From positions 4,364-68,363 of the forward strand of contig DATAVO010000047.1 in assembly GCA_036267695.1 (NCBI GenBank): a DNA stretch of 64,000 nucleotides. Direction: 5' to 3'. The notes beneath the pieces were generated by a model. That model searched no databases, was not told where the DNA came from, and worked only from the letters and a program-made list of their open reading frames with translations. This document shows, one piece after another, positions 8,461 through 62,430 of the stretch (positions are counted from its first letter, which is position 1; the number at the start of each line of letters is the position of its first letter). The position numbers and the translations under genes are program-made. This DNA comes from Frankiaceae bacterium (GTDB taxonomy: Bacteria > Actinomycetota > Actinomycetes > Frankiales > Frankiaceae).

Positions 8461-11595
<3,135 letters not shown>

Positions 11596-49780: not shown

Positions 49781-50200
49781 GTGGCTGGTATGCAAACGGT
49801 GATCCGCCCGGCGGCTGTGCTGCCGGAACATGCTGTGCGCCTGATCCTGCCCGCCCTGGAACGACTGGACGTCTCGGCGGGCGGTGTGTGGCTGACAACC
49901 CCCACCCTGTGGCAGCGCTACAACCGTCCCTGGGACGGTCCGCTGGGCAGTCACGGGACGTCTGACCTCGTCGGGTCGATCGCGGTCGTCTACGGGACCC
50001 CGACACGTTCGAGCATCACGGTCTATCGGGCGGCCGTCACCGACATAGGCGTCGCCGCGGGTTGGACGACGGACAGCCTGTGCGACGAAGCGTTCAGTTA
50101 CGCCGGGCTGACGCTGGCCAACTGCCCGCGCGCCGCGCTCGCCACGCCCCCGGCCCGCGACCCCTTCAAGGACGCTTCGCTCACCCGCGTGCCTGAGTAA
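49781..50200 (+). CDS. hypothetical protein, 139 aa
   Basis: Third codon positions are strongly GC-biased and the amino-acid composition is ordinary (MAGMQTVIRPAAVLPEHAVRLILPALERL...). I recognise no family. Confidence 0.55.
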   Translation: MAGMQTVIRPAAVLPEHAVRLILPALERLDVSAGGVWLTTPTLWQRYNRPWDGPLGSHGTSDLVGSIAVVYGTPTRSSITVYRAAVTDIGVAAGWTTDSLCDEAFSYAGLTLANCPRAALATPPARDPFKDASLTRVPE

Positions 50201-50269: not shown

Positions 50270-51028
50270 GTGCACGATGCGCCGGCCCTGGTCACCTTTC
50301 ACCTTTGGGGTGTCGCGCGTCGTCACGTTCCCTGGGCGCTGACCCGCATGGTCCGCCATCGGGCGCCGCTGCGCCGGGTACCGGGCCTTCGTTTCGCGCG
50401 CTTGCTCGGCACCGGTCACGGGCACTCCTTCACCCCCCGCGACGCTGACCCGCGCCACTGGGCCCTGCTCGCCGCTTGGGACACCGCGGAGCAGGCCGCG
50501 GCGTTCGAGCGCGACGGCGGCGATGAGATCGTGCGCCAGTGGGACGCACATGCCGATGAGCGGTGGCGGGTGAGCTTGCAGCCCGTCTCGTCGGTGGGCT
50601 TGTGGTCCGGGGCGGCGCCCTTCGGTCCGCGGGGCATCCGTGCGCCCCGGGAGAGCGCCGCGCCTTGTGCGGTGCTGACGCGCGCCCGGCTCTCCCCGCG
50701 CAAGGCGGCCGCGTTCTGGCGGGCGACCCCACCGGTCGCCGCCGCCGTCGCTGTCGCGCCCGGCTTGCGCTTCGCCCGCGGGATCGGTGAGGCGCCGGTG
50801 GGACTGCAAGCGACGTTCAGCGTCTGGGACGACCCGCGGTCCGCGTCGGCGTTCGCCTACGAAAACGCGGCGCATCGCGCGGTGGTCGACCGGACGGGCC
50901 CGGAGGGCTGGTACGCCGAGCAGCTGTTCGCCCGGTTCGCGGTGATCGACGCCAGTGGCGAGGTCGACGGACGGGATCCGATGGCGAGCAGCCGGGTAGG
51001 AAGCAGCAGGCGTGGACAGCTCGGCTGA
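50270..51028 (+). CDS. CrtA-like (spheroidene monooxygenase family) protein
   Basis: 252 aa. From memory, VTFHLWGV...VPWALTRM...PGLRFARLLGTGHGHSFTPRDADPRHWALLAAWDT resembles the Rhodobacter CrtA N-terminal pattern (SFFRF...GLRFFKLFGTGTGEGFTP...YAILAVW). Confidence 0.6.
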   Translation: MHDAPALVTFHLWGVARRHVPWALTRMVRHRAPLRRVPGLRFARLLGTGHGHSFTPRDADPRHWALLAAWDTAEQAAAFERDGGDEIVRQWDAHADERWRVSLQPVSSVGLWSGAAPFGPRGIRAPRESAAPCAVLTRARLSPRKAAAFWRATPPVAAAVAVAPGLRFARGIGEAPVGLQATFSVWDDPRSASAFAYENAAHRAVVDRTGPEGWYAEQLFARFAVIDASGEVDGRDPMASSRVGSSRRGQLG

Positions 51029-51596
51029 GGGGCAGCGGGAGGTGCAGCTCGAGCGCTGGGGTCCGGCGCAGATCAACGCCCGGATGACCGACGTCATGCG
51101 GGTCTACCGGCGCGCCTTCCTCGATGTCCACGAGGCCTTTCCGGCGCGGGCCGAGATCGAGCGCACCGCGCATGCGCGCAGCCATCTGCACCGACCGGGC
51201 CTGAGGGCGGTCGCGGCACTGGACGGCGATCGTCTGGTCGGGATCGGCTATGGCCAGCCCGGCGCCCCTGGGCAGTGGTGGCACGACGTCGTGACGACGG
51301 CCGTCGCCGAGATGGGCGGGTACGAGTTCGCCGAGGACTGGCTCGCCAGCTGCTTCGAGGTCGTCGAGCTGCACGTGCTGCCGACCCATCAAGGCGCCGG
51401 CATCGGGCGAGATGTGCTGCGCCTGCTGCTCGCTGATTGCGGCGAGCGCACCGCCGCGCTGTCGGCCCTGGAGCCGGACGGCAGCCGGGCTCGCCGGCTG
51501 TACACGGCCGAGGGTTTTCAGGCCCTGCTGTCGGACTTCCGTTTCCCCGGCGGGCCGACGCGCTACGCCGTACTCGCCAAACGCCTCCAGCAGTGA
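51012..51596 (+). CDS. GNAT-family N-acetyltransferase
   Basis: 194 aa. Contains LHVLPTHQGAGIGRDVLRLLL and RRLYTAEGF. It overlaps the CrtA-like gene by 17 nt. Confidence 0.7.
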   Translation: MDSSAEGQREVQLERWGPAQINARMTDVMRVYRRAFLDVHEAFPARAEIERTAHARSHLHRPGLRAVAALDGDRLVGIGYGQPGAPGQWWHDVVTTAVAEMGGYEFAEDWLASCFEVVELHVLPTHQGAGIGRDVLRLLLADCGERTAALSALEPDGSRARRLYTAEGFQALLSDFRFPGGPTRYAVLAKRLQQ

Positions 51597-53206
51597 CGGC
51601 CGCCAGGGCGGCGGCCCAGCGTGATGTCGTGGTCATCGGCGCCGGGCACAACGGTCTGGTGGCCGCCTGCTACCTCGCGCGGGCAGGGCTACGAGTGGAG
51701 GTCATCGAGCGCGACGACGTCATCGGCGGAGCGGTGTCCACCGTCGAACGCTTCCCTGGCTACCGCATCGACCGCGGCTCTAGCCTGCACGTGATGATCC
51801 GGTGGACCGCCATCACCGAAGAACTCGAACTCCACCGCCACGGGCTGCGCTATCTCGACTGTGACCCGTGGGGTTTCCTGCCGGTGGCCGGTGCACCCGG
51901 CGGGGGCATCACGTTCCGGGCCGATCTGGACCGCACCTGCGCGTCGATCGAGGCGGTGTGCGGGGCCCAAGAAGCCCAGACTTACCAGGCGTTCGTACGC
52001 GATTGGACCCGCCGCACCGAGCCGATGATCGAGGCCTTCAACGCTCCCCCGACACCGGGCCGGATCGGCCGCGCCGCCTGGCGCGCCGGAAAGCATCTGC
52101 CGGTGAGCGGCATGGAGATCAGCCGGCAATTCCTCTCCCCCGGTGACGCCGTGCTCGATGAGACGTTCCGGGACGAGCGGCTGAAGACTGCCCTCGCGTG
52201 GATGGGTTCGCAATCGGGACCGCCGATGTCGGAGCCGGGAACGGCGGGCCATCTCGGGTGGAGCGCGATGCTGCACACCCGGCCGCCGGCGCGACCGGTC
52301 GGCGGGTCCGGCGCACTCACGGCGGCACTCGCGAGCAGGCTGCGAGCTGACGGCGGGCTGGTACGGCTCGGCGATGCGGCCCGCTCCATCGAGGTCGAGC
52401 ACGGGAAGGTGAGCGCGGTCGTCGTGGCCAGCGGCGAGCGGTTGGCGACGAAGGCCGTCGTCTCTGCCTGCCACGTGCTGACGACGCTGGACCTTGCCCG
52501 CAAGGCGCTGCCGCCGGCGCTGACAAGGCGCGCAGAGCGGGCGGTACGCGTCGGCAACGGCATTGGGGTCGCGCTCCGGTTGGGCACGTCGGCCTTGCCC
52601 GCGTACCCGGACGCGCCCGGCGATGTGCACTCCGGCCTCGGGCTGCTCGCCGGCAGCCGGGGGATGCTCGCCGCCGCCTACGGCGACTACCTGGCCCGGC
52701 GGCCGCCGGCGACACCACCTGTCGTCGTCATGGGTTTCTCCGGCCTCGACCCGACGCTCGCCCCACCGGGCCGGCACACCGTCACGGTGTGGGGGCAGTG
52801 GTATCCGTTCGAGTTGGCCGGCACTTCGGACTGGGCTGCGCTGCGCGAGCAGACGACGGCCCGGCTGTTGGCCGCTGTCGACGCGGCGGCACCAGGCTTC
52901 TCCGGCACCGTCGAGCAGGCGCATCTGCAGACGCCGCAGGACCTGCAGGACGAGTTGGGTCTGCTGCACGGCAACGTCATGCACGTGGAGATGAGCCTTC
53001 CCTCGATGTTCGGCTGGCGGCCGCTGCCGGAGTTGGCCGGCTACCGCGCTCCGCTGCCTGGCCTGTATCTCGCCGGCGCCTCCACCCATCCCGGCGGGGG
53101 TGTCTCCGGCGCCAGCGGACGCAGTGCCGCGCGGGTGCTGCTGGCGGATCTGGAGAAGGCGGCGCGGCCGCGGCTCGCCGGTCGCCTGCGAAGGGGCCGG
53201 CCGTGA
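51593..53206 (+). CDS. phytoene desaturase-family FAD oxidoreductase (CrtI/CrtO-like)
   Basis: The GTG at 51593 overlaps the GNAT stop (GTGA). The dinucleotide-binding motif is VVVIGAGHNGLVAACYLARAGLRVEVIERDDVIGG. The C-terminus reads GLYLAGASTHPGGGVSG. Confidence 0.8.
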   Translation: MTAARAAAQRDVVVIGAGHNGLVAACYLARAGLRVEVIERDDVIGGAVSTVERFPGYRIDRGSSLHVMIRWTAITEELELHRHGLRYLDCDPWGFLPVAGAPGGGITFRADLDRTCASIEAVCGAQEAQTYQAFVRDWTRRTEPMIEAFNAPPTPGRIGRAAWRAGKHLPVSGMEISRQFLSPGDAVLDETFRDERLKTALAWMGSQSGPPMSEPGTAGHLGWSAMLHTRPPARPVGGSGALTAALASRLRADGGLVRLGDAARSIEVEHGKVSAVVVASGERLATKAVVSACHVLTTLDLARKALPPALTRRAERAVRVGNGIGVALRLGTSALPAYPDAPGDVHSGLGLLAGSRGMLAAAYGDYLARRPPATPPVVVMGFSGLDPTLAPPGRHTVTVWGQWYPFELAGTSDWAALREQTTARLLAAVDAAAPGFSGTVEQAHLQTPQDLQDELGLLHGNVMHVEMSLPSMFGWRPLPELAGYRAPLPGLYLAGASTHPGGGVSGASGRSAARVLLADLEKAARPRLAGRLRRGRP

Positions 53207-54045
53207 GCGCTCCCCCGTACGCTCCTGCTGTGGCAAGCTCCACCGGCACAGTGGCGACGGAAGGGCTGCCCGCCCGCCTCCCTCTTCGGCCCGCCGTGCG
53301 GGTCGTCCCCGCACTGATCACGGGGCTGGCGGCGCTCACTGTGCTCAGCCAGATCGCCTACCCACTGACGGCGGGCACCGTGCGCGACCGGCTGACGATC
53401 ACCACGGTCCTGCTCTGGTGCGCAGCCTCGCTGACGCACGCGGCAGTCTCACGGGGCCGCTGGTTTGCCCTCGGCGTGCTCGCGATCAGTGCCGGCGTCG
53501 GCTTCGGCTCAGAGGCACTCGGCGTCGCTACGGGCGTGCCGTTCGGCCACTACGGCTACGCGTCGACGCTGGGCCCACGGGTGCTCGGAGTGCCGGTGAT
53601 CGTCCCGCTGGCCTGGACGATGATGGCCTACCCGGCGCTGCTCGTCGGGCTGCGGATCGGCGCCCCGGTCTTCAGCGGCGCGCTGGCGCTCGCGAGCTGG
53701 GACCTGTTCCTCGATCCGCAGATGGTCGCGGCCGGCCATTGGCGGTTCGCCGGCGGCGGCCCGAGCATCAATGCGATCCCGTTGTCGAACACGCTCGGGT
53801 GGAGTCTCGTCGCTTTGGTGATCATGGCGGGTCTGCTTCGCCTGCCGCAGCGCGTGCAGCGGCCGGTCGACGACCGGGTGCCGATCGGGCTCTACCTCTG
53901 GACGTACGCCTCCTCCGTGCTGGCTGCAGCGGCCTTCTTCCACCAACCCGGGGCGGCGCTTGCCGGCGGCCTCGTGATGGGGATCCCGGTGGCGCTGCTC
54001 GTACGCTCGCGGGCCAGACGGGTCCAGCCCGGTCCGGTGGCGTGA
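53203..54045 (+). CDS. polytopic carotenoid-biosynthesis membrane protein (DUF422 / CruF-like hydratase family)
   Basis: The GTG at 53203 overlaps the upstream stop (GTGA). There are about 7 hydrophobic segments. Contains GVPFGHYGY and SWDLFLDPQMVAAGHWRF. The family was recognised from memory. Confidence 0.6.
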   Translation: MSAPPYAPAVASSTGTVATEGLPARLPLRPAVRVVPALITGLAALTVLSQIAYPLTAGTVRDRLTITTVLLWCAASLTHAAVSRGRWFALGVLAISAGVGFGSEALGVATGVPFGHYGYASTLGPRVLGVPVIVPLAWTMMAYPALLVGLRIGAPVFSGALALASWDLFLDPQMVAAGHWRFAGGGPSINAIPLSNTLGWSLVALVIMAGLLRLPQRVQRPVDDRVPIGLYLWTYASSVLAAAAFFHQPGAALAGGLVMGIPVALLVRSRARRVQPGPVA

Positions 54046-55145
54046 AGCCTTCGCGACGGGCAGCGCGCACTCTCGCCATCGCGCTGACGCTGCACAGCGC
54101 GATCAACGCCCGGCTGCTGCGCCGCCCACCCGCCGCGTCAGCCATCGCCGAGCGGGTCAGCGTCCTGTTGCCCCTGCGCGATGAGGCGCATCGGGTACGG
54201 CCGTGCCTCGAAGCGCTGGCGGCGCAGACCGGCGTGCACGAGCTGGAGTTCGTCGTGCTCGACGACGACTCCAGCGACGGCACGGCAGCGCTCGTTTCCT
54301 CAATGTTTGCAGGTGATTCGCGTCTGCGACTGATCCGTGGACACGGGGAAACGCCTACCGGATATCTCGGCAAGCCCTGGGCGTGCGCCCGGTTGGCCGC
54401 CGCTGCCGACCCACGCTCTGAAGTGCTGGTGTTCCTGGACGCCGACGTCGTGCTGACCCACGACGGGCTGGCTCGGACGGTCGCCCTGCTGCGCGCCGCC
54501 GGGCTGGACTTCGTGAGCCCGTATCCGCGCCAGGAGGCCGGATCCCTCACCGAACGTCTGATGCAGCCGCTCCTGACCTGGTCGTGGTTGACGCTCGTGC
54601 CGCTGCGGCTCGCGGAGTGTTCCCGGCGTCCATCACTGGCCATCGCCAACGGCCAGCTTCTTGCGGTCGACGCGGCGCGCTACCGGGCATCGGGTGGCCA
54701 TGGCGCCCCCGGTGTGCGGGCGAGCGTTCTGGAGGACATCGCGCTCGCCCGACTGCTGCGGGCGCATGGCAACAGCGGAAGTATGGCCGCCGGCAACGAG
54801 GTGGCGACCTGCCGGATGTATGAGGGTTGGCCCGCTCTACGCGACGGGTATGCCAAGTCGCTCTGGGCCGCGGCCGGCGGGCGCCCGGCAGGCAGCGCCG
54901 GGCAGTTCGCCTTGCTGGCGTGGCTGTATCTGCGCCCGGACTGGCTGTGTTACCTCTCGGGAGTCGCCTCACGGTTGATCGCCGCCCGCCGGGCCGCAAG
55001 CCGCGCCCTCCCTGATGCGCTGGCCCATCCGCTTTCCATCGCACTGCTCGGCGGGCTGACCGTGCGCTCTTGGCTGCTACGCGGCCGGGGCGAGCTGACC
55101 TGGAAGGGCCGCCCGGTCGTCGCCGGCGAGCTTTCCGCGGCGTAG
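54042..55145 (+). CDS. family 2 glycosyltransferase
   Basis: The GTG at 54042 overlaps the upstream stop (GTGA). Contains VSVLLPLRDEA, VVLDDDSSDGT and FLDADV (DxD). C-terminal TM segments are present. Confidence 0.8.
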   Translation: MKPSRRAARTLAIALTLHSAINARLLRRPPAASAIAERVSVLLPLRDEAHRVRPCLEALAAQTGVHELEFVVLDDDSSDGTAALVSSMFAGDSRLRLIRGHGETPTGYLGKPWACARLAAAADPRSEVLVFLDADVVLTHDGLARTVALLRAAGLDFVSPYPRQEAGSLTERLMQPLLTWSWLTLVPLRLAECSRRPSLAIANGQLLAVDAARYRASGGHGAPGVRASVLEDIALARLLRAHGNSGSMAAGNEVATCRMYEGWPALRDGYAKSLWAAAGGRPAGSAGQFALLAWLYLRPDWLCYLSGVASRLIAARRAASRALPDALAHPLSIALLGGLTVRSWLLRGRGELTWKGRPVVAGELSAA

Positions 55146-55158
55146 GAGGGCCGAACGA

Positions 55159-56601
55159 GTGGCACGCATCGTCGTCATCGGAGCCGGCCTCGGCGGGCTG
55201 GCCTCCGCCGCCCGGCTCCGGGCCGCCGGTCACGACGTCACCGTCTGCGAACGCGCGCCGTCGGTCGGGGGCAAGCTTGCCGCGTACGCGCGCGACGGCT
55301 TCCGCTTCGACACCGGACCGTCGCTGCTGACGATGCCCTTCGTCTTCGAGGACCTCTTCGCCGCAACGGGCGAGCGGCTGGGTGAGGTACTCGACCTGCA
55401 GCGGGTCGATCCGCATTGCCAGTACCGGTTCGATGACGGCGTCGTCCTCGAGGTGCCCGCGGCGCGCGTGGCCCTTGCCGAGGCGATCGGCAATGCCCTC
55501 GGCGGGCAGGCGGCGAAAGAATGGGGTGCCCTGCAGGAAAGGGCCGCGCGCATGTGGGCGGTCGCGCGCGGACCGTTCCTCGAGGCTGCCGGTCCCCCGC
55601 GGCTGCTCGAGCTCGCCGCGCGCCAGCCGGCACAGCTGCCGGTGATCGCGCCCGGGCGTTCGCTGCGGTGGCTCGCCCAACGGATGCTGACCGGCCCGCA
55701 TCTGCAGGCAATGCTCGAGCGGTACGCCACCTACGCCGGATCCGATCCGCGGCGAGCACCGGCCGCCCTTGCCGCGACGGCCTTCGCCGAGCAGGAGTAC
55801 GGCTGCTGGTATGTCGCGGGCGGGTTGCATCGGCTCGCGACAGCTCTCGCGGAGCGGATCGATCCCGTCCGTACATCTACCGCGGTGACCCGTATCGCTC
55901 TCGCCGCCGGACGCGTCAGCGGGGTGACCCTCGAGAACGGCGAGCACCTCGCGGCCGACGCGGTGGTTGCGGACGTCGATGCCGCCCATCTCTACGGCGA
56001 TCTGCTCCCGAAGCGACGGCTCCTGCCGGGCGGGACGCCCTCGTCAGCCGGATTCGTGATGCTGCTGGGCATCAGCGATCCGGCGCCCGAACTGGCGCAC
56101 CACACGGTGCTCTTCCCGCCGCTGGACGGCCCCGGCTATGCCGCCGAGTTCGACGCGGTGTTCACCGACTACATCAGCGCTGCGCCCACCATCTACGTCT
56201 CGGCGCCCCGCGACTCCGCGACGGCACCCGATGGCAAGCGGTCGGTCTTCGTCTTGGTCAACGCACCCCGGCAGGGGCGCTTCGATTGGGATGCACCGGA
56301 CGTGGGCGACATCTACGCCCGGCATCTGCTGGAGGTCATGGCACAGCGCGGTCTGGATCTGCGCGGGCGCGTGGCCTTCTGCGAGACGCGCTCCCCGGCA
56401 GATCTGGCCCGAGCCACCGGCGCTCCCGGCGGGGCGATCTATGGGACCGCGAGCCACGGCGCGGCCGCGTTCCGTCGCGCGGCGAACCGCTCGCCCGTTC
56501 CGGGACTGTTCCTCACCGGCGGGAGCGCCCACCCCGGCGGCGGCCTGCCCCTCGTCGCGCTCTCAGCGGCTGCCGTCACGCGGCTGATCGGACCTGCCTG
56601 A
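55159..56601 (+). CDS. phytoene desaturase-family protein (CrtD/CrtI-like)
   Basis: 480 aa. Contains IVVIGAGLGGLASAARLRAAGHDVTVCERAPSVGGK, FDTGPSLLTMP and GLFLTGGSAHPGGGLPL. Confidence 0.85.
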   Translation: MARIVVIGAGLGGLASAARLRAAGHDVTVCERAPSVGGKLAAYARDGFRFDTGPSLLTMPFVFEDLFAATGERLGEVLDLQRVDPHCQYRFDDGVVLEVPAARVALAEAIGNALGGQAAKEWGALQERAARMWAVARGPFLEAAGPPRLLELAARQPAQLPVIAPGRSLRWLAQRMLTGPHLQAMLERYATYAGSDPRRAPAALAATAFAEQEYGCWYVAGGLHRLATALAERIDPVRTSTAVTRIALAAGRVSGVTLENGEHLAADAVVADVDAAHLYGDLLPKRRLLPGGTPSSAGFVMLLGISDPAPELAHHTVLFPPLDGPGYAAEFDAVFTDYISAAPTIYVSAPRDSATAPDGKRSVFVLVNAPRQGRFDWDAPDVGDIYARHLLEVMAQRGLDLRGRVAFCETRSPADLARATGAPGGAIYGTASHGAAAFRRAANRSPVPGLFLTGGSAHPGGGLPLVALSAAAVTRLIGPA

Positions 56602-56635
56602 TCGCCGCTCCCTGATCTCTACTGCCTGACGGGCG

Positions 56636-57313
56636 CTAGGCCGGGCGCTGCTCATGGAGCCGCGGGCCCACCGCACGCAGGAATTGAGCGGCTCCGGCGA
56701 CGCTCAAAGCGCCGTTGGCCGCAGCCCCGGCAGTCGCGAAAACCCTTGCGCCCCAAGGGAAGAAGCCCGAAGTCACGAAGGCCGAAGCGGTCACTGCCAT
56801 CCTGACCGGTCGTTCCCCGACGGTGACGGTCCCGATCTCGCTGACGCCAGCGGCCGCTGCCCGGGCTCTCGCGTACTCCAGCAGCATGACGCCCGCACCC
56901 GCTGCCACCGTCAACCGCGGCGGCGCTCCAGCCGCCCGCAATCCCAGCAATTGCAAGGCATCACTGGCCCGATCGGCGAGTGAGTCCAGCACGAATCCCC
57001 AGCCGGTATCGGCGCCGGAGAGCACAGCGACCGATCCGTCGAGGCCGTCGGCGAAGCCAGAGGCGAGCACCGCCGCGCCGGCGACCAAAAATCCTTTGCC
57101 CCGGGCACGGGCGGCCAACGGTGCGGCAGCAGCCAGGCCGACCCCGATGGCGGTCAACACGTCGGGCGACACGTTGCGCTTGGCCAACGGCCGGGCAGCG
57201 CCTTCCACGAGGGTGAGCCACGCGGCGGTCGCCCGCGAAGGGGCGGCGGCGGCCCCGCCGTGCAGTTCGCTCCAGCGCGCGCGGTAGCCGGTGCGGTCAG
57301 GGAGCGCGCTCAC
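56636..57313 (-). CDS. CDP-alcohol phosphatidyltransferase-family membrane protein (variant motif)
   Basis: The GTG at 57313 overlaps the upstream stop (GTGA). ADGLDGSVAVLSGADTGWGFVLDSLADRASD resembles DGxxARx8Gx3Dx3D, but with AV in place of AR. Several TM segments are present. Confidence 0.65.
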   Translation of the reverse strand: MSALPDRTGYRARWSELHGGAAAAPSRATAAWLTLVEGAARPLAKRNVSPDVLTAIGVGLAAAAPLAARARGKGFLVAGAAVLASGFADGLDGSVAVLSGADTGWGFVLDSLADRASDALQLLGLRAAGAPPRLTVAAGAGVMLLEYARARAAAAGVSEIGTVTVGERPVRMAVTASAFVTSGFFPWGARVFATAGAAANGALSVAGAAQFLRAVGPRLHEQRPA

Positions 57314-57873
57314 GCGACGGAGGGGATCTCCGCCACCCGGCCGCGCAGCCCGCTCTCGGCGGTGCGCGCCAGCAACCGGACCGCGAGCGATCGGAAGATC
57401 CAGCGCGGCACGATCGCCGGCACGGCAAGCGGTCCGTGCAGCGTGATGCGCGCCGTGACGAGTGTGCCGCCCGACGCCTGCGGGATCAGCAAATGCTCGA
57501 CCTCCTCGTCCAACCCGTGGAAAAGATGGGCCGTGGTAGCCAGCGACGAACGGTCGACGACGTGCTCGATGTCGACCGGAATCTGCCATCCCCACAGGCG
57601 CATCTGGCCGAGCACCTGCTCGCCCGCCGCGACCTCCCAGGTATCGGGCTCATCACCGGCTTCGGCCGAACTGGGTTCGACCGACCGCAGGGAGGGATCG
57701 AACTCGACCCACCGCTGCGGGTGAGCGAGCACCGCCCACACCGCCGGCACCGGCGCCGCGCTGCTGGCACGAGCACCGGCCGAAGCGCGCAGGAGGACGC
57801 CGAGCGGACTGGCAGGCACTGACGCCAAAGCCTGCAAGGACGAAAGGAGGGGCACGGACGGCATGTAGCGCAT
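57310..57873 (-). CDS. hypothetical protein, possibly SRPBCC (START/cyclase-dehydrase-like) fold
   Basis: 187 aa and translationally coupled to the phosphatidyltransferase gene. The fold assignment rests only on overall pattern (AVWAVLAHPQRWVEFDP...), so it is weak. Confidence 0.4.
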   Translation of the reverse strand: MRYMPSVPLLSSLQALASVPASPLGVLLRASAGARASSAAPVPAVWAVLAHPQRWVEFDPSLRSVEPSSAEAGDEPDTWEVAAGEQVLGQMRLWGWQIPVDIEHVVDRSSLATTAHLFHGLDEEVEHLLIPQASGGTLVTARITLHGPLAVPAIVPRWIFRSLAVRLLARTAESGLRGRVAEIPSVA

Positions 57874-58159: not shown

Positions 58160-59083
58160 TCAGTGCGCCCCGGGGCTCCGGCGCCCCAGCGAATCGAAGA
58201 TCTCCAGCGTCGCGGTCGAACGGTTCAGCGTGTAGAAGTGCAGGCCCGGCGCCCCGCCGGCGAGCAGTCGGGTGGCCAGGTCCGACGCCACCTCCACCCC
58301 GATCGCCCGCACGGCGGCGCCGTCGTCACCGGCCTCGGCCAGCCGGCTCGCGAGCTCCTCCGGGAAGATCGCACCCGACATCTCCGCCATTCGCCTGATC
58401 GACGACGTCTGGGTCACCGGCATGATCCCGGGCAGGATCGGGACGCTGCAGCCCAGCGCGGCTACGCGGTCACGCAGGCGGAAGTACGCGTCCGCCGAGA
58501 AGAAGAACTGGGTGATGGCGAAGTCAGCGCCGGCGTCGCACTTTTCGACCAGCCGCCGGGCATCAGCCTCCAGATCGCTGGCCCCCGGGTGCTTGTCCGG
58601 GAAGGCCGCGACGCCCACGCAGAAGTCGCCGAGGGAGCGCACCAGCCCGACCAATTCGTTCGCGTAGGTCAGCCCCTCCGGATGCGGCTCCCAGGGCGCT
58701 GACGGGCCACCGGGCGGATCCCCGCGAAGCGCCAAGACGTTGCGGATCCCGGCACCGGCGTAGTCACCGACCACCCGGCGAAGCTCGGAGATGCTGTGGC
58801 CCACCGCCGTCAGATGCGCGACGGGGGTGAGCGTGGTCTGCGTCGCGATGCGCTCGGTGACGCGAATCGTGCGGTCGCGGCTCGATCCTCCCGCCCCGTA
58901 GGTGACCGAGACGAACGTCGGTGCATACGGCTCGAGGTCGCGAATCGCCCGCCACAGCTGGACTTCGCCCTCATCGGTCTTGGGCGGGAAGAACTCGAAG
59001 GAGAAGGACGGCTCCCCGGTCGACAGCAGATCCCGGACCGTTTTGGTGCGAGGCGTGCGCACACCAGCCGTGCTCACCTGCAC
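58160..59083 (-). CDS. metF: methylenetetrahydrofolate reductase
   Basis: The conserved core begins at SFEFFPPKTDEGE, with SVTYGAGGS and FYTLN near the end. Start candidates are GTG 59083, 59077 and 59062. The ORF-track start at 59563 overlaps the upstream gene. Confidence 0.85.
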   Translation of the reverse strand: MQVSTAGVRTPRTKTVRDLLSTGEPSFSFEFFPPKTDEGEVQLWRAIRDLEPYAPTFVSVTYGAGGSSRDRTIRVTERIATQTTLTPVAHLTAVGHSISELRRVVGDYAGAGIRNVLALRGDPPGGPSAPWEPHPEGLTYANELVGLVRSLGDFCVGVAAFPDKHPGASDLEADARRLVEKCDAGADFAITQFFFSADAYFRLRDRVAALGCSVPILPGIMPVTQTSSIRRMAEMSGAIFPEELASRLAEAGDDGAAVRAIGVEVASDLATRLLAGGAPGLHFYTLNRSTATLEIFDSLGRRSPGAH

Positions 59084-59130
59084 CAACCCCGTCCCGGACG
59101 CTCGGCGGTCTTCCGCTCTGACTAGCGAGA

Positions 59131-59892: not shown

Positions 59893-61011
59893 ATGCCGAC
59901 CGGGATGCCTGCCGCTGACGCCGCAGCCAAGCCCCGTGACCCGGCGCGCCTGACTGAGCTGGGAGTGCGGGTGAATCACGCGCTCGAAAGCTTTCTCGAT
60001 CGCGCGGGGCCGGTAGTGACCCGGATCGGCCCCGAACTGGAGCCCGTCACCGCTGCCACCCGGGAGTTCGTACTCGCCGGCGGCAAGCGGCTGCGGCCGG
60101 CCTTCTGCTACTGGGGCTGGCGCGGCGCCGGCGCGGCAGACAGCGATGGCGTCCTGCAGGCGGCAGCGTCACTGGAATTGCTGCACGCCTGCGCGCTCAT
60201 CCACGACGACGTCATGGACGCCTCAGACACCCGCCGGGACCGGCCGTCCACCCACCGGCAGTTCGCCGACCTGCACCTCAAAGGCGGGTGGAGAGGCGAT
60301 CCAGAATCGTTCGGGGCGAGTGCCGCGATCCTGCTCGGCGACCTGTGCCTGGTCTGGGCGGACCAGATGTTCGGCGAGTGCGGCCTGGATCCAGCCGCCA
60401 TCGACCGGGCCCGCGGGATCTACGCGGAAATGCGTGTCGAGCTGATGGCCGGGCAATACCTCGACGTCCTGGCGTCAGTGTTACGCGAGCCCGATAGCGC
60501 AGCAGGTATCGAACGGGCCCTGCGCGTGGCCCGGTACAAGAGCGCCAAGTACACGATCGAACGCCCGCTCCAACTCGGCGGCGCGCTGGCCGGTGCACCC
60601 GCCGGACTGCTGACGGCCTACTCCGCCTATGGGCTTCCGCTGGGTGAGGCGTTTCAGTTGCGCGACGACATCCTCGGCGTCTTCGGCGATCCCGCCCTCA
60701 CCGGCAAGCCCGCCGGCGACGACCTGCGGGAGGGCAAGCGCACCGCCCTCGTGACGCTCGCCGAGCAGCGGGCCGAACCTGCTGCTGCGGCCCAGCTCAG
60801 CGCGCTTTTGGGCGATCCCGACCTCGACGCTGCCGGCGTCGCGACCTGCCGCCAGGTGATCAGCGAATGTGGCGCCCTTGCCGAAGTGGAGGAGTTAATC
60901 GTCCGCCGCGGGGCACAGGCACGTGAAGCGTTGGACGCACCCACCCTTGACCATGCGGCGCGTCGCTCCCTCGAAGCCCTGGCCGCAGCGGTCACCGACC
61001 GCATCGGGTGA
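59893..61011 (+). CDS. idsA: polyprenyl (geranylgeranyl) diphosphate synthase
   Basis: Contains GGKRLRPAFCYWGW, the first Asp-rich motif LIHDDVMDASDTRR and the second FQLRDDILG. The start is uncertain (ATG 59893, ATG 59905, or a GTG further downstream). The ORF-track start at 59227 is antisense to the neighbouring gene. Confidence 0.85.
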   Translation: MPTGMPAADAAAKPRDPARLTELGVRVNHALESFLDRAGPVVTRIGPELEPVTAATREFVLAGGKRLRPAFCYWGWRGAGAADSDGVLQAAASLELLHACALIHDDVMDASDTRRDRPSTHRQFADLHLKGGWRGDPESFGASAAILLGDLCLVWADQMFGECGLDPAAIDRARGIYAEMRVELMAGQYLDVLASVLREPDSAAGIERALRVARYKSAKYTIERPLQLGGALAGAPAGLLTAYSAYGLPLGEAFQLRDDILGVFGDPALTGKPAGDDLREGKRTALVTLAEQRAEPAAAAQLSALLGDPDLDAAGVATCRQVISECGALAEVEELIVRRGAQAREALDAPTLDHAARRSLEALAAAVTDRIG

Positions 61012-61068: not shown

Positions 61069-62430
61069 GTGACGGAGTCGGGGGTGAGCATGATCGGGTT
61101 GGAAACCCGCTTAGGGAGCGGGCGAAACGCTGGCACGGCACCCGACGCGCTCGCACCCCTACTGCTCGTCGAGGACGACGAAGGCGACGCGTTCCTCGTC
61201 ACGGAATTGCTGCTCGAAGCCGGTATCGACTGGCCGGTCGAGTGGGTGCGCAACCTGTCTGAAGCAGCTACGGCCCTCGCGTCGGGAGTGCGCTGCGTGC
61301 TACTCGATCTCGGCCTGCCCGATGCCGATGACCGGCCCGACGGCCTGGGCGCACTCCACGATCTGCTCGAAATCGCTCCCCTGACGCCGGTGCTGGTGCT
61401 CACCGGGCTCGACGACGAGGCCCGCGGTGCGGCCGCGGTTTTCGCCGGCGCGCAGGACTACCTGGTCAAGGGCCAGGTCGACGGCAATAGCCTGGCCCGC
61501 GCTGTGCTCTACGCCGTCGAGCGTCGCCGCGCCGAGGAGGCCAGCCGCCAGCTCATGGAAGCCCGGCTGCTGCAGGGCGAGAACGACCGGCTGACCCGCG
61601 GCCTGCTCCCCCAGCCCCAGCTGCGCTCCCCCGATCTCTTCGTGCATTCGCGGTACACACCGGGCGAACGGCGGCTGGTGCTCGGCGGTGACTTCTACGA
61701 CGTGGTCGAGGGCGCCGATGGCCGCCTGCACCTGCTCGTCGGCGACGTCAGCGGCCACGGTCCCGACGAAGCGGCACTCGGGGTCCACCTGCGGGTGGCC
61801 TGGCGCACTCTGGTGCTGGCCGAAGTGCCCTCTGCCGACGTGCTCCCGATCCTCGAGGACATCCTGGTCCGTGAGCGGCGCTCCGACGAGATCTTCGCGA
61901 CCGTGTGCCAGCTGGTGATCAGCGCCGATCGGGCCCGCGGGGCCCTCTGGCTCGCCGGCCATCCGGTGCCGATCCTGCTCGAGCCGCATTGCCGTCCGCT
62001 GGCCGATGAGGCCGATGGTGGGGGCACCGTCGAGATCGCAGGTCCGCCACTGGGCGCCGTCCCGGGACTGTCATGGGATCGCGTCGAGGTGGCCCTGCCG
62101 GTGCCCTGGGCGCTCGCGTTGCATTCGGACGGGCTGTTCGAGGGCTTCGCGGACGCGCAGCCCGCGCCTGACGCCGCCGATGCTGGTGCGCCAGTCGATG
62201 CCCCAATTGAGGCCCCCATTGATGACCCGGTCGGTGGCGCCGCCGAAGGGCGCCCGCGGTTGGGGCTTTCCGGACTGCTCGACATCCTGATCACGGCGCA
62301 GCAGCGCGATCTCGACGACAGCACACTGCTCGACACCGTCATCACTGAGGCCGAGCGCCGTAACGGCGGCCCCATGGCGGACGATCTGGCGCTGCTCATG
62401 GTTCGGCACGATCCCCGGTCAGGCGCGTGA
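61069..62430 (+). CDS. response-regulator receiver domain fused to a PP2C/SpoIIE-type phosphatase
   Basis: The REC domain reads LLLVEDDEGDAFLV...VLLDLGLPD...VLVLTG...YLVKG. The PP2C-like part reads LGGDFYDVVEG...LLVGDVSGHGPDEAALG...LHSDGL...DDLALLMV. Confidence 0.8.
   Translation: MTESGVSMIGLETRLGSGRNAGTAPDALAPLLLVEDDEGDAFLVTELLLEAGIDWPVEWVRNLSEAATALASGVRCVLLDLGLPDADDRPDGLGALHDLLEIAPLTPVLVLTGLDDEARGAAAVFAGAQDYLVKGQVDGNSLARAVLYAVERRRAEEASRQLMEARLLQGENDRLTRGLLPQPQLRSPDLFVHSRYTPGERRLVLGGDFYDVVEGADGRLHLLVGDVSGHGPDEAALGVHLRVAWRTLVLAEVPSADVLPILEDILVRERRSDEIFATVCQLVISADRARGALWLAGHPVPILLEPHCRPLADEADGGGTVEIAGPPLGAVPGLSWDRVEVALPVPWALALHSDGLFEGFADAQPAPDAADAGAPVDAPIEAPIDDPVGGAAEGRPRLGLSGLLDILITAQQRDLDDSTLLDTVITEAERRNGGPMADDLALLMVRHDPRSGA

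Follow-up and report, generated by a model that had tools for sequence, protein, structure and literature searches.

Contiguous genes that tailor the psi end of a carotenoid have been described in acI Actinobacteria, where an acyltransferase-crtA-cruF-cruG-crtD operon is located upstream of crtE-crtI-crtB and recurs throughout the acI clades, with intergenic transcripts as evidence that the genes form an operon; the compound expected from it, 'actinoxanthin', is a hydroxylated, desaturated, glycosylated and acylated carotenoid that has itself only been predicted, and the gene numbering leaves two unnamed genes between crtD and crtE (bioRxiv 10.1101/367102). The chemistry of such an end group has been shown by heterologous expression for Nonlabens, in which CruF hydrates the psi end, CrtD desaturates 1'-hydroxy-gamma-carotene, and deoxymyxol finally arises when a CrtA homologue, CrtA-OH, adds a hydroxyl group at C-2'. 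Here we analyse a related locus in a Frankiaceae bacterium, at positions 50,270 to 57,873 of a 64,000-nucleotide stretch of contig DATAVO010000047.1 (assembly GCA_036267695.1); "the window" below means this whole stretch. The locus consists of six plus-strand genes and a convergent minus-strand pair, the nearer member of which encodes a CDP-alcohol phosphotransferase, referred to below as the transferase.

From their families, junctions and synteny, we consider it rather likely that the plus-strand genes (50270-56601) are an actinobacterial psi-end carotenoid tailoring operon of a type already described for sioxanthin, 'actinoxanthin' and myxol glycoside. The main useful result is comparative, namely that the transferase belongs to a distinct PIPS-like subfamily (PIPS, phosphatidylinositol-phosphate synthase) that lacks the arginine of its signature motif and lies within an actinobacterial carotenoid supercluster in most of the lineages examined. 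Judging from its sequence, the transferase would on balance carry out phospholipid head-group rather than carotenoid chemistry, regardless of whether it shares regulation with the pigment genes or has simply been caught next to them. The families, junctions, synteny counts and residue conservation are observed here, and the enzymatic steps, the product and the substrates of the transferase are inferred.

Gene families and junctions of the tailoring operon

Families were called using Pfam gathering scores and NCBIfam models, and structures were compared using AlphaFold2 (AF2) models and Foldseek. Homologous loci came from 80 species-level genomes retrieved with an alignment of the transferase (numbered with the letter L), and synteny was counted over 39 complete operon loci, over 72 loci for metF and over 62 loci with an informative flank. 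An operon-side sample comprised 80 metagenome contigs picked through CrtD, 53 of which were informative (at least 2.5 kb of flank when the transferase is missing). The sampled lineages are related to each other, and all linkage counts given below carry this kinship. Long spurious open reading frames (ORFs) are common in the window because its G+C content is ~70%, and a gene caller based on G+C at third codon positions missed many genes and served only as a rough guide. The eight genes that an earlier note on this stretch had named all have family support and lengths that match called orthologues elsewhere, and we therefore regard them as real genes rather than chance ORFs:

50270..51028, plus strand: CrtA-family monooxygenase, probably a carotenoid 2'-hydroxylase of the CrtA-OH type (NF045923)
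51012..51596, plus strand: GNAT acyl/acetyl-transferase, an optional operon member (PF00583)
51593..53206, plus strand: CrtO-type flavoprotein, putative carotenoid 4-ketolase, an optional member (NF045689)
53203..54045, plus strand: predicted CruF-type carotenoid 1',2'-hydratase, a membrane protein (PF04240, TIGR03460)
54042..55145, plus strand: GT2 glycosyltransferase of the CruG/CruC/HpnB kind (PF00535)
55159..56601, plus strand: predicted CrtD-type 1-hydroxycarotenoid 3,4-desaturase (NF045637, crtI_fam)
56636..57313, minus strand: PIPS-like CDP-alcohol phosphotransferase without the motif arginine (PF01066, 6h53/6wm5, AF2 model)
57310..57873, minus strand: small SRPBCC (Bet v 1/START-like) protein, a lineage-specific insert (PF10604, AF2 model)

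The junctions are exactly as the earlier note had read them. The CrtA-like gene (stop 51028) and the GNAT gene (GTG start 51012) overlap by 17 nt; GTGA start/stop overlaps join GNAT to CrtO-like (51593-51596), CrtO-like to CruF (53203-53206) and CruF to GT2 (54042-54045); and between the GT2 stop (55145) and the CrtD start (55159) there is a 13-nt spacer that contains a GGAGG box. All four core genes of a psi-end tailoring operon (crtA-family, cruF, GT2 and crtD) are thus present, contiguous and co-directional, with overlapping or close junctions. On the opposite strand the SRPBCC stop and the transferase start are coupled by a further GTGA overlap (57310-57313), and CrtD, with its stop at 56601, and the convergent transferase, with its stop at 56636, are 34 nt apart; the terminator scan found no terminator in this spacer. 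When 49.6-61.2 kb was scanned for promoters and terminators, the yield did not exceed that expected from shuffled sequence, and Rfam models had no match anywhere in the window.

Profile searches placed the CrtA-like, GNAT, CrtO-like, CruF, GT2, CrtD and CDP-alcohol phosphotransferase genes in the families that had been proposed for them. The CruF protein scores 115.9 bits against PF04240 (cut-off 25) and 118 bits against TIGR03460, does not reach the haloarchaeal and cyanobacterial equivalog cut-offs, and is present in 39 of 39 operons. GT2, found in 38/39, matches PF00535 at 53.7 bits (cut-off 23.3) and the CruG and HpnB models at 101.9 and 98.4 bits, both under their cut-offs. The CrtD-like protein, also present in 38/39, has NF045637 as its top model at 325 bits, under the equivalog cut-off of 580, and exceeds the subfamily cut-off of crtI_fam (TIGR02734; 279.6 bits, cut-off 238.1). 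The GNAT protein (PF00583, 29.7 bits) is encoded in 24 of the 39 complete syntenic operons and the CrtO-like protein in 17; the latter has its best family match, over its full length, to NF045689 at 267.6 bits, the equivalog cut-off being 1000.

The CrtA-like gene comes first in the operon in all 39 complete syntenic loci. Its product has no Pfam match and aligns over its full length to the spheroidene monooxygenase model NF045923 at 174.9 bits; as the equivalog cut-off is 300, the sequence is that of a homologue rather than an equivalog, and it fits a CrtA-OH-like hydroxylase. The family is large (>2391 homologues), and two of the three homologues looked up, one from Blastococcus and one from an ENA contig (L085 and L087), stand alone in unrelated contexts with no carotenoid gene nearby; they are 57-60% identical to the window protein. 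These solitary homologues suggest that the family has paralogues outside the operon with other roles; sampling by CrtA-like homologues was uninformative, and CrtD was therefore used for the operon-side sample. The earlier note had taken the protein to be a C-2 ketolase, as CrtA is in purple bacteria, in which case the end group would be 2-keto instead of 2'-hydroxy. Its sole NCBIfam match is indeed the Rhodobacter-type spheroidene monooxygenase model, and CrtA enzymes are capable of both hydroxylation and ketolation. However, the score lies far under the equivalog cut-off, and the CrtA homologues that accompany CruF and CrtD act as 2'-hydroxylases, as shown for myxol and predicted for acI. By analogy with these, the window protein is more likely a 2'-hydroxylase than a ketolase, and we hold a ketolase to be doubtful.

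In the route that we propose, CruF would hydrate the 1',2' bond, CrtD would desaturate C-3',4', the CrtA-family enzyme would hydroxylate C-2', and the GT2 enzyme would glycosylate a psi-end hydroxyl. In the window lineage, the CrtO-type flavoprotein is the probable source of a 4-keto group at the opposite end, and the GNAT protein may modify the sugar. Because a CrtO-type ketolase is present, the product is predicted to be a carotenoid glycoside with keto and hydroxy groups that likely resembles salinixanthin or deinoxanthin. The note's prediction of an end group that is hydroxylated, desaturated, glycosylated and possibly keto is upheld; its remark that it could not match a described pathway does not hold for this operon, which is of the acI 'actinoxanthin' type and follows the myxol route.

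A PIPS-like transferase without the motif arginine

The transferase scores 32.8 bits against PF01066 (cut-off 22), and its AF2 model (pLDDT 93.3) has the six-helix membrane fold, with mycobacterial PIP synthases as top Foldseek matches. Mycobacterial PIP synthases are also its best relatives in the PDB by profile search (6h53 and 6wm5, E ~3e-18). The score against the PIPS model NF045883 is 50.4 bits, below the equivalog cut-off of 170, and that against the archaeal AIP synthase model is 86.9 bits, with a cut-off of 180. The signature reads D89-G-L-D92-G93-S-V-A96-V97...G106...D110...D114, followed by R115, and thus holds seven of the eight positions of D1xxD2G1xxAR...G2xxxD3xxxD4, with V97 in place of the arginine; the earlier note had read this substitution correctly. 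It is not particular to the window, since the position is occupied by V in 63, I in 7, L in 6, A in 4 and R in 0 of the 80 species. The family spans >547 species-level genomes, and an alignment of 20 sequences, down to 32% identity, has 22 invariant columns that include the four aspartates, both glycines and the alanine.

The closest characterised protein in both sequence and fold is PgsA1 of Mycobacterium tuberculosis (Rv2612c; 6h53, 6h59 and 6wm5). The window protein keeps the nucleotide-cleft motif P50-D-x-x-T54, G93, A96, G106 and all four metal or catalytic aspartates, and in the acceptor pocket the PgsA1 residues R94, Y133, K135, R137, R152 and R155 correspond to R115, Y147, R149, R151, R168 and R171, which are invariant (six of eight pocket positions). 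The two proteins differ at the remaining pocket positions, where S132 of PgsA1 is replaced by a nearly invariant E146 and R195 is not conserved in register. They differ further in that R76 of PgsA1 is V, I, L or A in the transferase family, in that this family has an N-terminal RWSxLHGG motif of its own, and in their context, which is metF and carotenoid genes instead of the pimA operon. According to the PgsA1 structure paper, R76 makes contact with CDP-diacylglycerol at its alpha-phosphate.

Yeast Cpt1 and the archaeal IPCT-DIPPS are less active when the corresponding arginine is replaced, whereas Candida Cho1 R133A retains wild-type activity, so that loss of the motif arginine need not abolish activity. 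The most economical reading of the sequence and the model is that the transferase is a PIPS paralogue and an active CDP-alcohol phosphotransferase. Because the arginine is replaced and the pocket is changed, its substrates may differ from CDP-diacylglycerol and inositol phosphate. In the literature searched, we found no role assigned to the arginine-less PIPS-like subfamily. Another lead was the 'Lipocone/Wok' family, reported to be associated with actinobacterial carotenoid genes; it corresponds to DUF2238, matches no gene here and was dropped.

Linkage of the transferase to carotenoid genes

Across the 80 loci the transferase gene recurs in a block that comprises a CrtI-like gene, IdsA/CrtE and, on the opposite strand, metF-(insert)-transferase, converging on CrtD-GT2-CruF-(CrtO)-(GNAT)-CrtA. 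In the window, the block continues beyond the SRPBCC gene with the following genes:

58160..59098, minus strand: MetF (methylenetetrahydrofolate reductase), head of the metF-SRPBCC-transferase unit, start codon not fixed (PF02219, TIGR00676)
59899..61011, plus strand: polyprenyl diphosphate synthase (CrtE/IdsA), divergent from metF, start codon not fixed (PF00348)
61069..62430, plus strand: response-regulator/PP2C (SpoIIE) protein, a lineage-specific insertion between crtE and crtI (PF07228, PF00072)

The transferase lies beside tailoring genes in 58 of the 62 informative loci. The tailoring genes are downstream and convergent in 55, with a gap of <200 nt in 27; in three loci the tailoring operon is instead on the other side of crtE, within 4 kb, and in four there is no tailoring gene within 10 kb of the transferase. 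When contigs were selected through CrtD, the transferase was downstream in 39 of 53 and absent in 14, seven of which keep metF, several with a Na+/H+ antiporter between. The link to a CDP-alcohol phosphotransferase that the earlier note had pointed out is therefore real and conserved across genomes (58/62 loci, 39/53 contigs), and the lineages in which the transferase lies in the carotenoid supercluster include Frankia, Asanoa, the acI/Nanopelagicales group that is abundant in fresh water, and Nitriliruptoria. As some contigs lack metF and others the transferase, the two genes are independently dispensable at this position, and the transferase is the more faithful neighbour of crtD. The pigment pathway has no strict need of a nearby transferase, since 14/53 contigs and 4/62 loci lack the pairing. 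The adjacency is suggestive of functional or regulatory coupling, without amounting to proof of it. On the other side, synteny past CrtA (orf139, CbiX, SirA) fades fast.

The transferase and the SRPBCC gene do not form a free-standing convergent unit; they close a longer co-directional one, metF-(insert)-transferase, that metF leads. In 62 of 72 loci, metF precedes the transferase on the same strand, 19 of these with a gap of <150 nt, and in the Nanopelagicales locus L080 (9048-10630) the end of metF and the start of the transferase share 4 nt (9995-9998), which implies translational coupling of metF with the PIPS-like gene. The window MetF scores 330.5 bits against PF02219 and 329.1 bits against TIGR00676, passing the cut-off of the latter.

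The SRPBCC gene is present in only 11 of the 80 syntenic loci, and in L008, L012, L017, L027, L043, L047, L064 and L066 its slot is filled by a SIMPL/DUF541 gene (PF04402, 150 bits) that also has a weak match to an 'oxidative stress defense protein' model; for these reasons, we rejected the idea that the transferase has the SRPBCC protein as a conserved partner. As the note had considered possible, the protein does belong to SRPBCC; it is a recent lineage-specific addition. Its own score against PF10604 (Polyketide_cyc2) is 25.3 bits, just under the cut-off of 27.4, but many homologues carry PF10604, and the AF2 model (pLDDT 85.8) has a helix-grip fold with Foldseek matches to Bet v 1/PYL proteins at E ~4e-8. 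Compared with SRPBCC, Bet v 1, START and PYR-PYL binding proteins, the fold is alike (TM-scores ~0.6-0.75), whereas identity is only 11-17%. The family is narrow, with 54 members in a search of 5.8 billion proteins. In the window lineage it may be an addition that binds a small ligand or a lipid. The C-terminal S-V-A (57310-57321, minus strand) is invariant or nearly so in 21 homologues down to ~50% identity; because the GTG start of the transferase falls within these codons, translational coupling rather than protein function may be the source of the constraint.

Two further gene types were seen at these loci. One, identified by eye, encodes a CPA1/NhaP-type Na+(K+)/H+ antiporter; its place is between the transferase and crtD in L048, L059 and L075, downstream of the transferase in L062, and between crtD and metF in the transferase-less contigs L090, L092, L117, L118 and L157. 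Where the operon lies beyond crtE, there is a gene for a large polytopic membrane protein after the transferase in L033 (10687-12312) and after the adjacent CrtI-like gene in L018 (10995-12728) and L058 (13351-14895). It has a weak GT87 match that suggests an MptA/MptB-like mannosyltransferase (E 0.006, under the cut-off). A link to PI-based lipoglycans was not taken up, as the GT87 match is weak and confined to these three related loci.

In the explanation that we favour, the operon would be one arm of an old conserved block, crtI...crtE / metF-(insert)-transferase, next to the dcw cluster. The transferase would condense a CDP-activated lipid with an inositol-phosphate-like polar alcohol to form a membrane phospholipid head group, and its placement would reflect this ancient gene block, possibly with co-regulation. 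Several findings weigh against this explanation. On the side of the operon, the specific NCBIfam equivalog cut-offs were all missed, and the assignments of individual steps therefore rest on family-level homology and context. On the side of the transferase, the motif arginine is replaced family-wide and the pocket departs from that of PgsA1 (E146 for S132, R195 out of register). Adjacency to crtD, seen in the 58 loci noted above, is kept down to 37% protein identity. In Egibacteraceae/Nitriliruptorales, the transferase still converges on crtD-GT2-cruF-crtO-crtA when metF and crtE are gone from the neighbourhood, and 11 of the 39 transferase-bearing contigs, from freshwater, have the order crtD, transferase, crtE without metF. 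The adjacency thus persists more than would be expected for a passive relic.

In a rival explanation, which goes back to the earlier note, the transferase would act in the carotenoid pathway, for instance by transferring a phosphatidyl or other phospho-alcohol group from a CDP donor onto the carotenoid glycoside or by using an isoprenoid CDP donor, to give a carotenoid-linked phospholipid. Such a role would suit the convergent adjacency to crtD in both samples and its survival without metF, or without metF and crtE, as well as L018 and L058, where the operon is on the other side and the transferase is followed by a co-directional CrtI-like gene. The replaced arginine and the change from S132 to E146 suggest altered substrates, and the literature searched gives no published function for the gene. 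However, the PIP-synthase nucleotide cleft and basic pocket suit a small anionic polyol better than a bulky neutral glycolipid, the block has no kinase or cytidylyltransferase that would activate a carotenoid, about a quarter of the operons have no transferase nearby, and sioxanthin is reportedly a plain glucoside. We accordingly judge a role in the carotenoid pathway to be quite unlikely. In its most specific form, the transferase, found beside crtD in at least two actinobacterial classes, would be a dedicated operon partner that makes a carotenoid-linked phospholipid, and the SRPBCC protein would be a lipid or carotenoid carrier in the window lineage; this too we regard as improbable, and we found no indication of the carotenoid- or polyprenol-linked lipid raised by the earlier note; the transferase looks like a PIPS paralogue. 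An opposite interpretation holds that the transferase is catalytically dead or a structural relic that has lost the DGxxAR arginine, for which the contact of the PgsA1 arginine with the CDP-diacylglycerol alpha-phosphate and the lowered activity of Cpt1 and IPCT-DIPPS could be cited. The full activity of Cho1 R133A runs counter to it, as do the invariance of the aspartates, glycines, alanine and the 22 columns overall, and the spread of the family over hundreds of genomes; moreover, the replacement is always a small or medium-sized hydrophobic residue, which looks selected and not like decay. We therefore find a dead enzyme very improbable. Were the transferase to act on the pigment after all, a new lipid class would be implied and the predicted structure of 'actinoxanthin' would change; if it does not, it would still be a phospholipid synthase that awaits characterisation, and would show that the CDP-alcohol phosphotransferase motif regarded as 'universal' is not so.

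Genomic surroundings and comparison with described clusters

The first 46 kb of the window (1-46 kb) hold, as judged by eye, the conserved actinobacterial dcw region for cell division and cell wall; sulfite-reduction genes and CbiX come after it. By eye, the dcw region and its neighbours (1-31000) include dnaE, guaB-like, rluD, lspA, ileS, sepF, ftsZ, murC, ftsW, murF, murE, ftsI and mraZ, and because this cluster adjoins, the carotenoid block sits in the conserved chromosomal backbone. CbiX and the CrtA-like gene are separated by an ORF of 139 amino acids (49781-50200, plus strand) that neither Pfam nor NCBIfam models match. Identity to its counterparts in L001-L004 is 91-97%, their other proteins being about 67-94% identical, which is unusually strong conservation for a protein without an assigned function; the ORF is found in only 7 of the 39 syntenic operon loci.

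On the other side of the operon, metF is followed by the polyprenyl synthase (PF00348, 167.6 bits), which is found upstream in 55 of the 62 loci and is followed farther out by a CrtI-like gene in 49 of the 62; from sequence, we take this synthase to be the CrtE of the cluster. Next come the response-regulator/PP2C gene (PF07228, 97.4 bits; PF00072, 39 bits), which has orthologues only in L001, L003, L004 and L067, and a sensor kinase that runs off the end of the window. A look-up of the window's own transferase gave only a 1.85-kb contig, and the DNA past this point was therefore inferred from the closest genome, L001, a metagenome-assembled genome (MAG) of an uncultured member of the Actinomycetota; the Frankiaceae MAG L003 is nearly as close, and proteins in these loci are 73-96% identical to those of the window. 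The order in L001 is response-regulator/PP2C, histidine kinase, response regulator and CrtI (kinase and response regulator by eye), and its 533-amino-acid CrtI, with 538 bits against crtI_fam, maps roughly 0.8-2.4 kb past the window end (the locus is 78-94% identical). The operon therefore lies beside lycopene genes of the crtE-crtI(-crtB) kind through the CrtE/IdsA gene at 59.9-61.0 kb and the CrtI of L001; crtB and a cyclase were not located. The earlier note was right that no precursor gene other than the polyprenyl synthase is nearby in the window, but this lack is largely a window-edge effect, because the synthase would itself be CrtE and crtI follows just past the end in L001.

In structure, the SRPBCC protein is most like the plant PYR/PYL abscisic-acid receptors, and the response-regulator/PP2C gene lies 3 kb away. 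PYR/PYL receptors bind an apocarotenoid and act on PP2C phosphatases. Both genes are lineage-specific and do not strictly co-occur, as L002 and L005 carry only the SRPBCC gene of the two, and the parallel is probably a coincidence at the level of the fold.

The operon adds a Frankiaceae-like soil lineage to the known carotenoid-glycoside clusters, which is of modest value and lies mainly in the CrtO-type and GNAT extras. With the acI 'actinoxanthin' operon it shares the core genes, their order, the place beside crtE and the predicted chemistry, and two Nanopelagicales loci (L076 and L080) have the block as in the window, transferase included. What sets it apart from the acI operon are the additional CrtO-type and GNAT genes after crtA and before cruF; upstream of crtA, L080 has a gene for a YbaK/tRNA_edit protein, not GNAT. 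With the myxol pathway of Flavobacteriia (Nonlabens spongiae, Flavobacterium P99-3), it shares the three enzyme families that act on the psi end, CruF, CrtD and CrtA-OH, but that pathway comes from another phylum, and the flavobacterial cluster has no glycosyltransferase and no adjacent transferase, metF or crtE. The sioxanthin subcluster of Salinispora tropica, reported by Richter, Hughes and Moore in 2015, reportedly contains crtA, cruF, glycosyltransferase and crtD homologues and would be of the same operon type. Sioxanthin is reported to be a 1'-glucosyloxy-2'-hydroxy-3',4'-didehydro psi-end carotenoid, a plain glucoside with an aryl end and no keto group. The window differs from it in having a CrtO-type gene and in having no desaturase/methyltransferase for aryl formation. 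In the locus of Asanoa (L078, Micromonosporaceae), on which this comparison draws, the block is identical, transferase included; the cluster type of sioxanthin has been reported in nearly all Micromonospora genomes. Set beside these systems, the operon is of an already described kind, and its only unusual part is the conserved PIPS-related neighbour.

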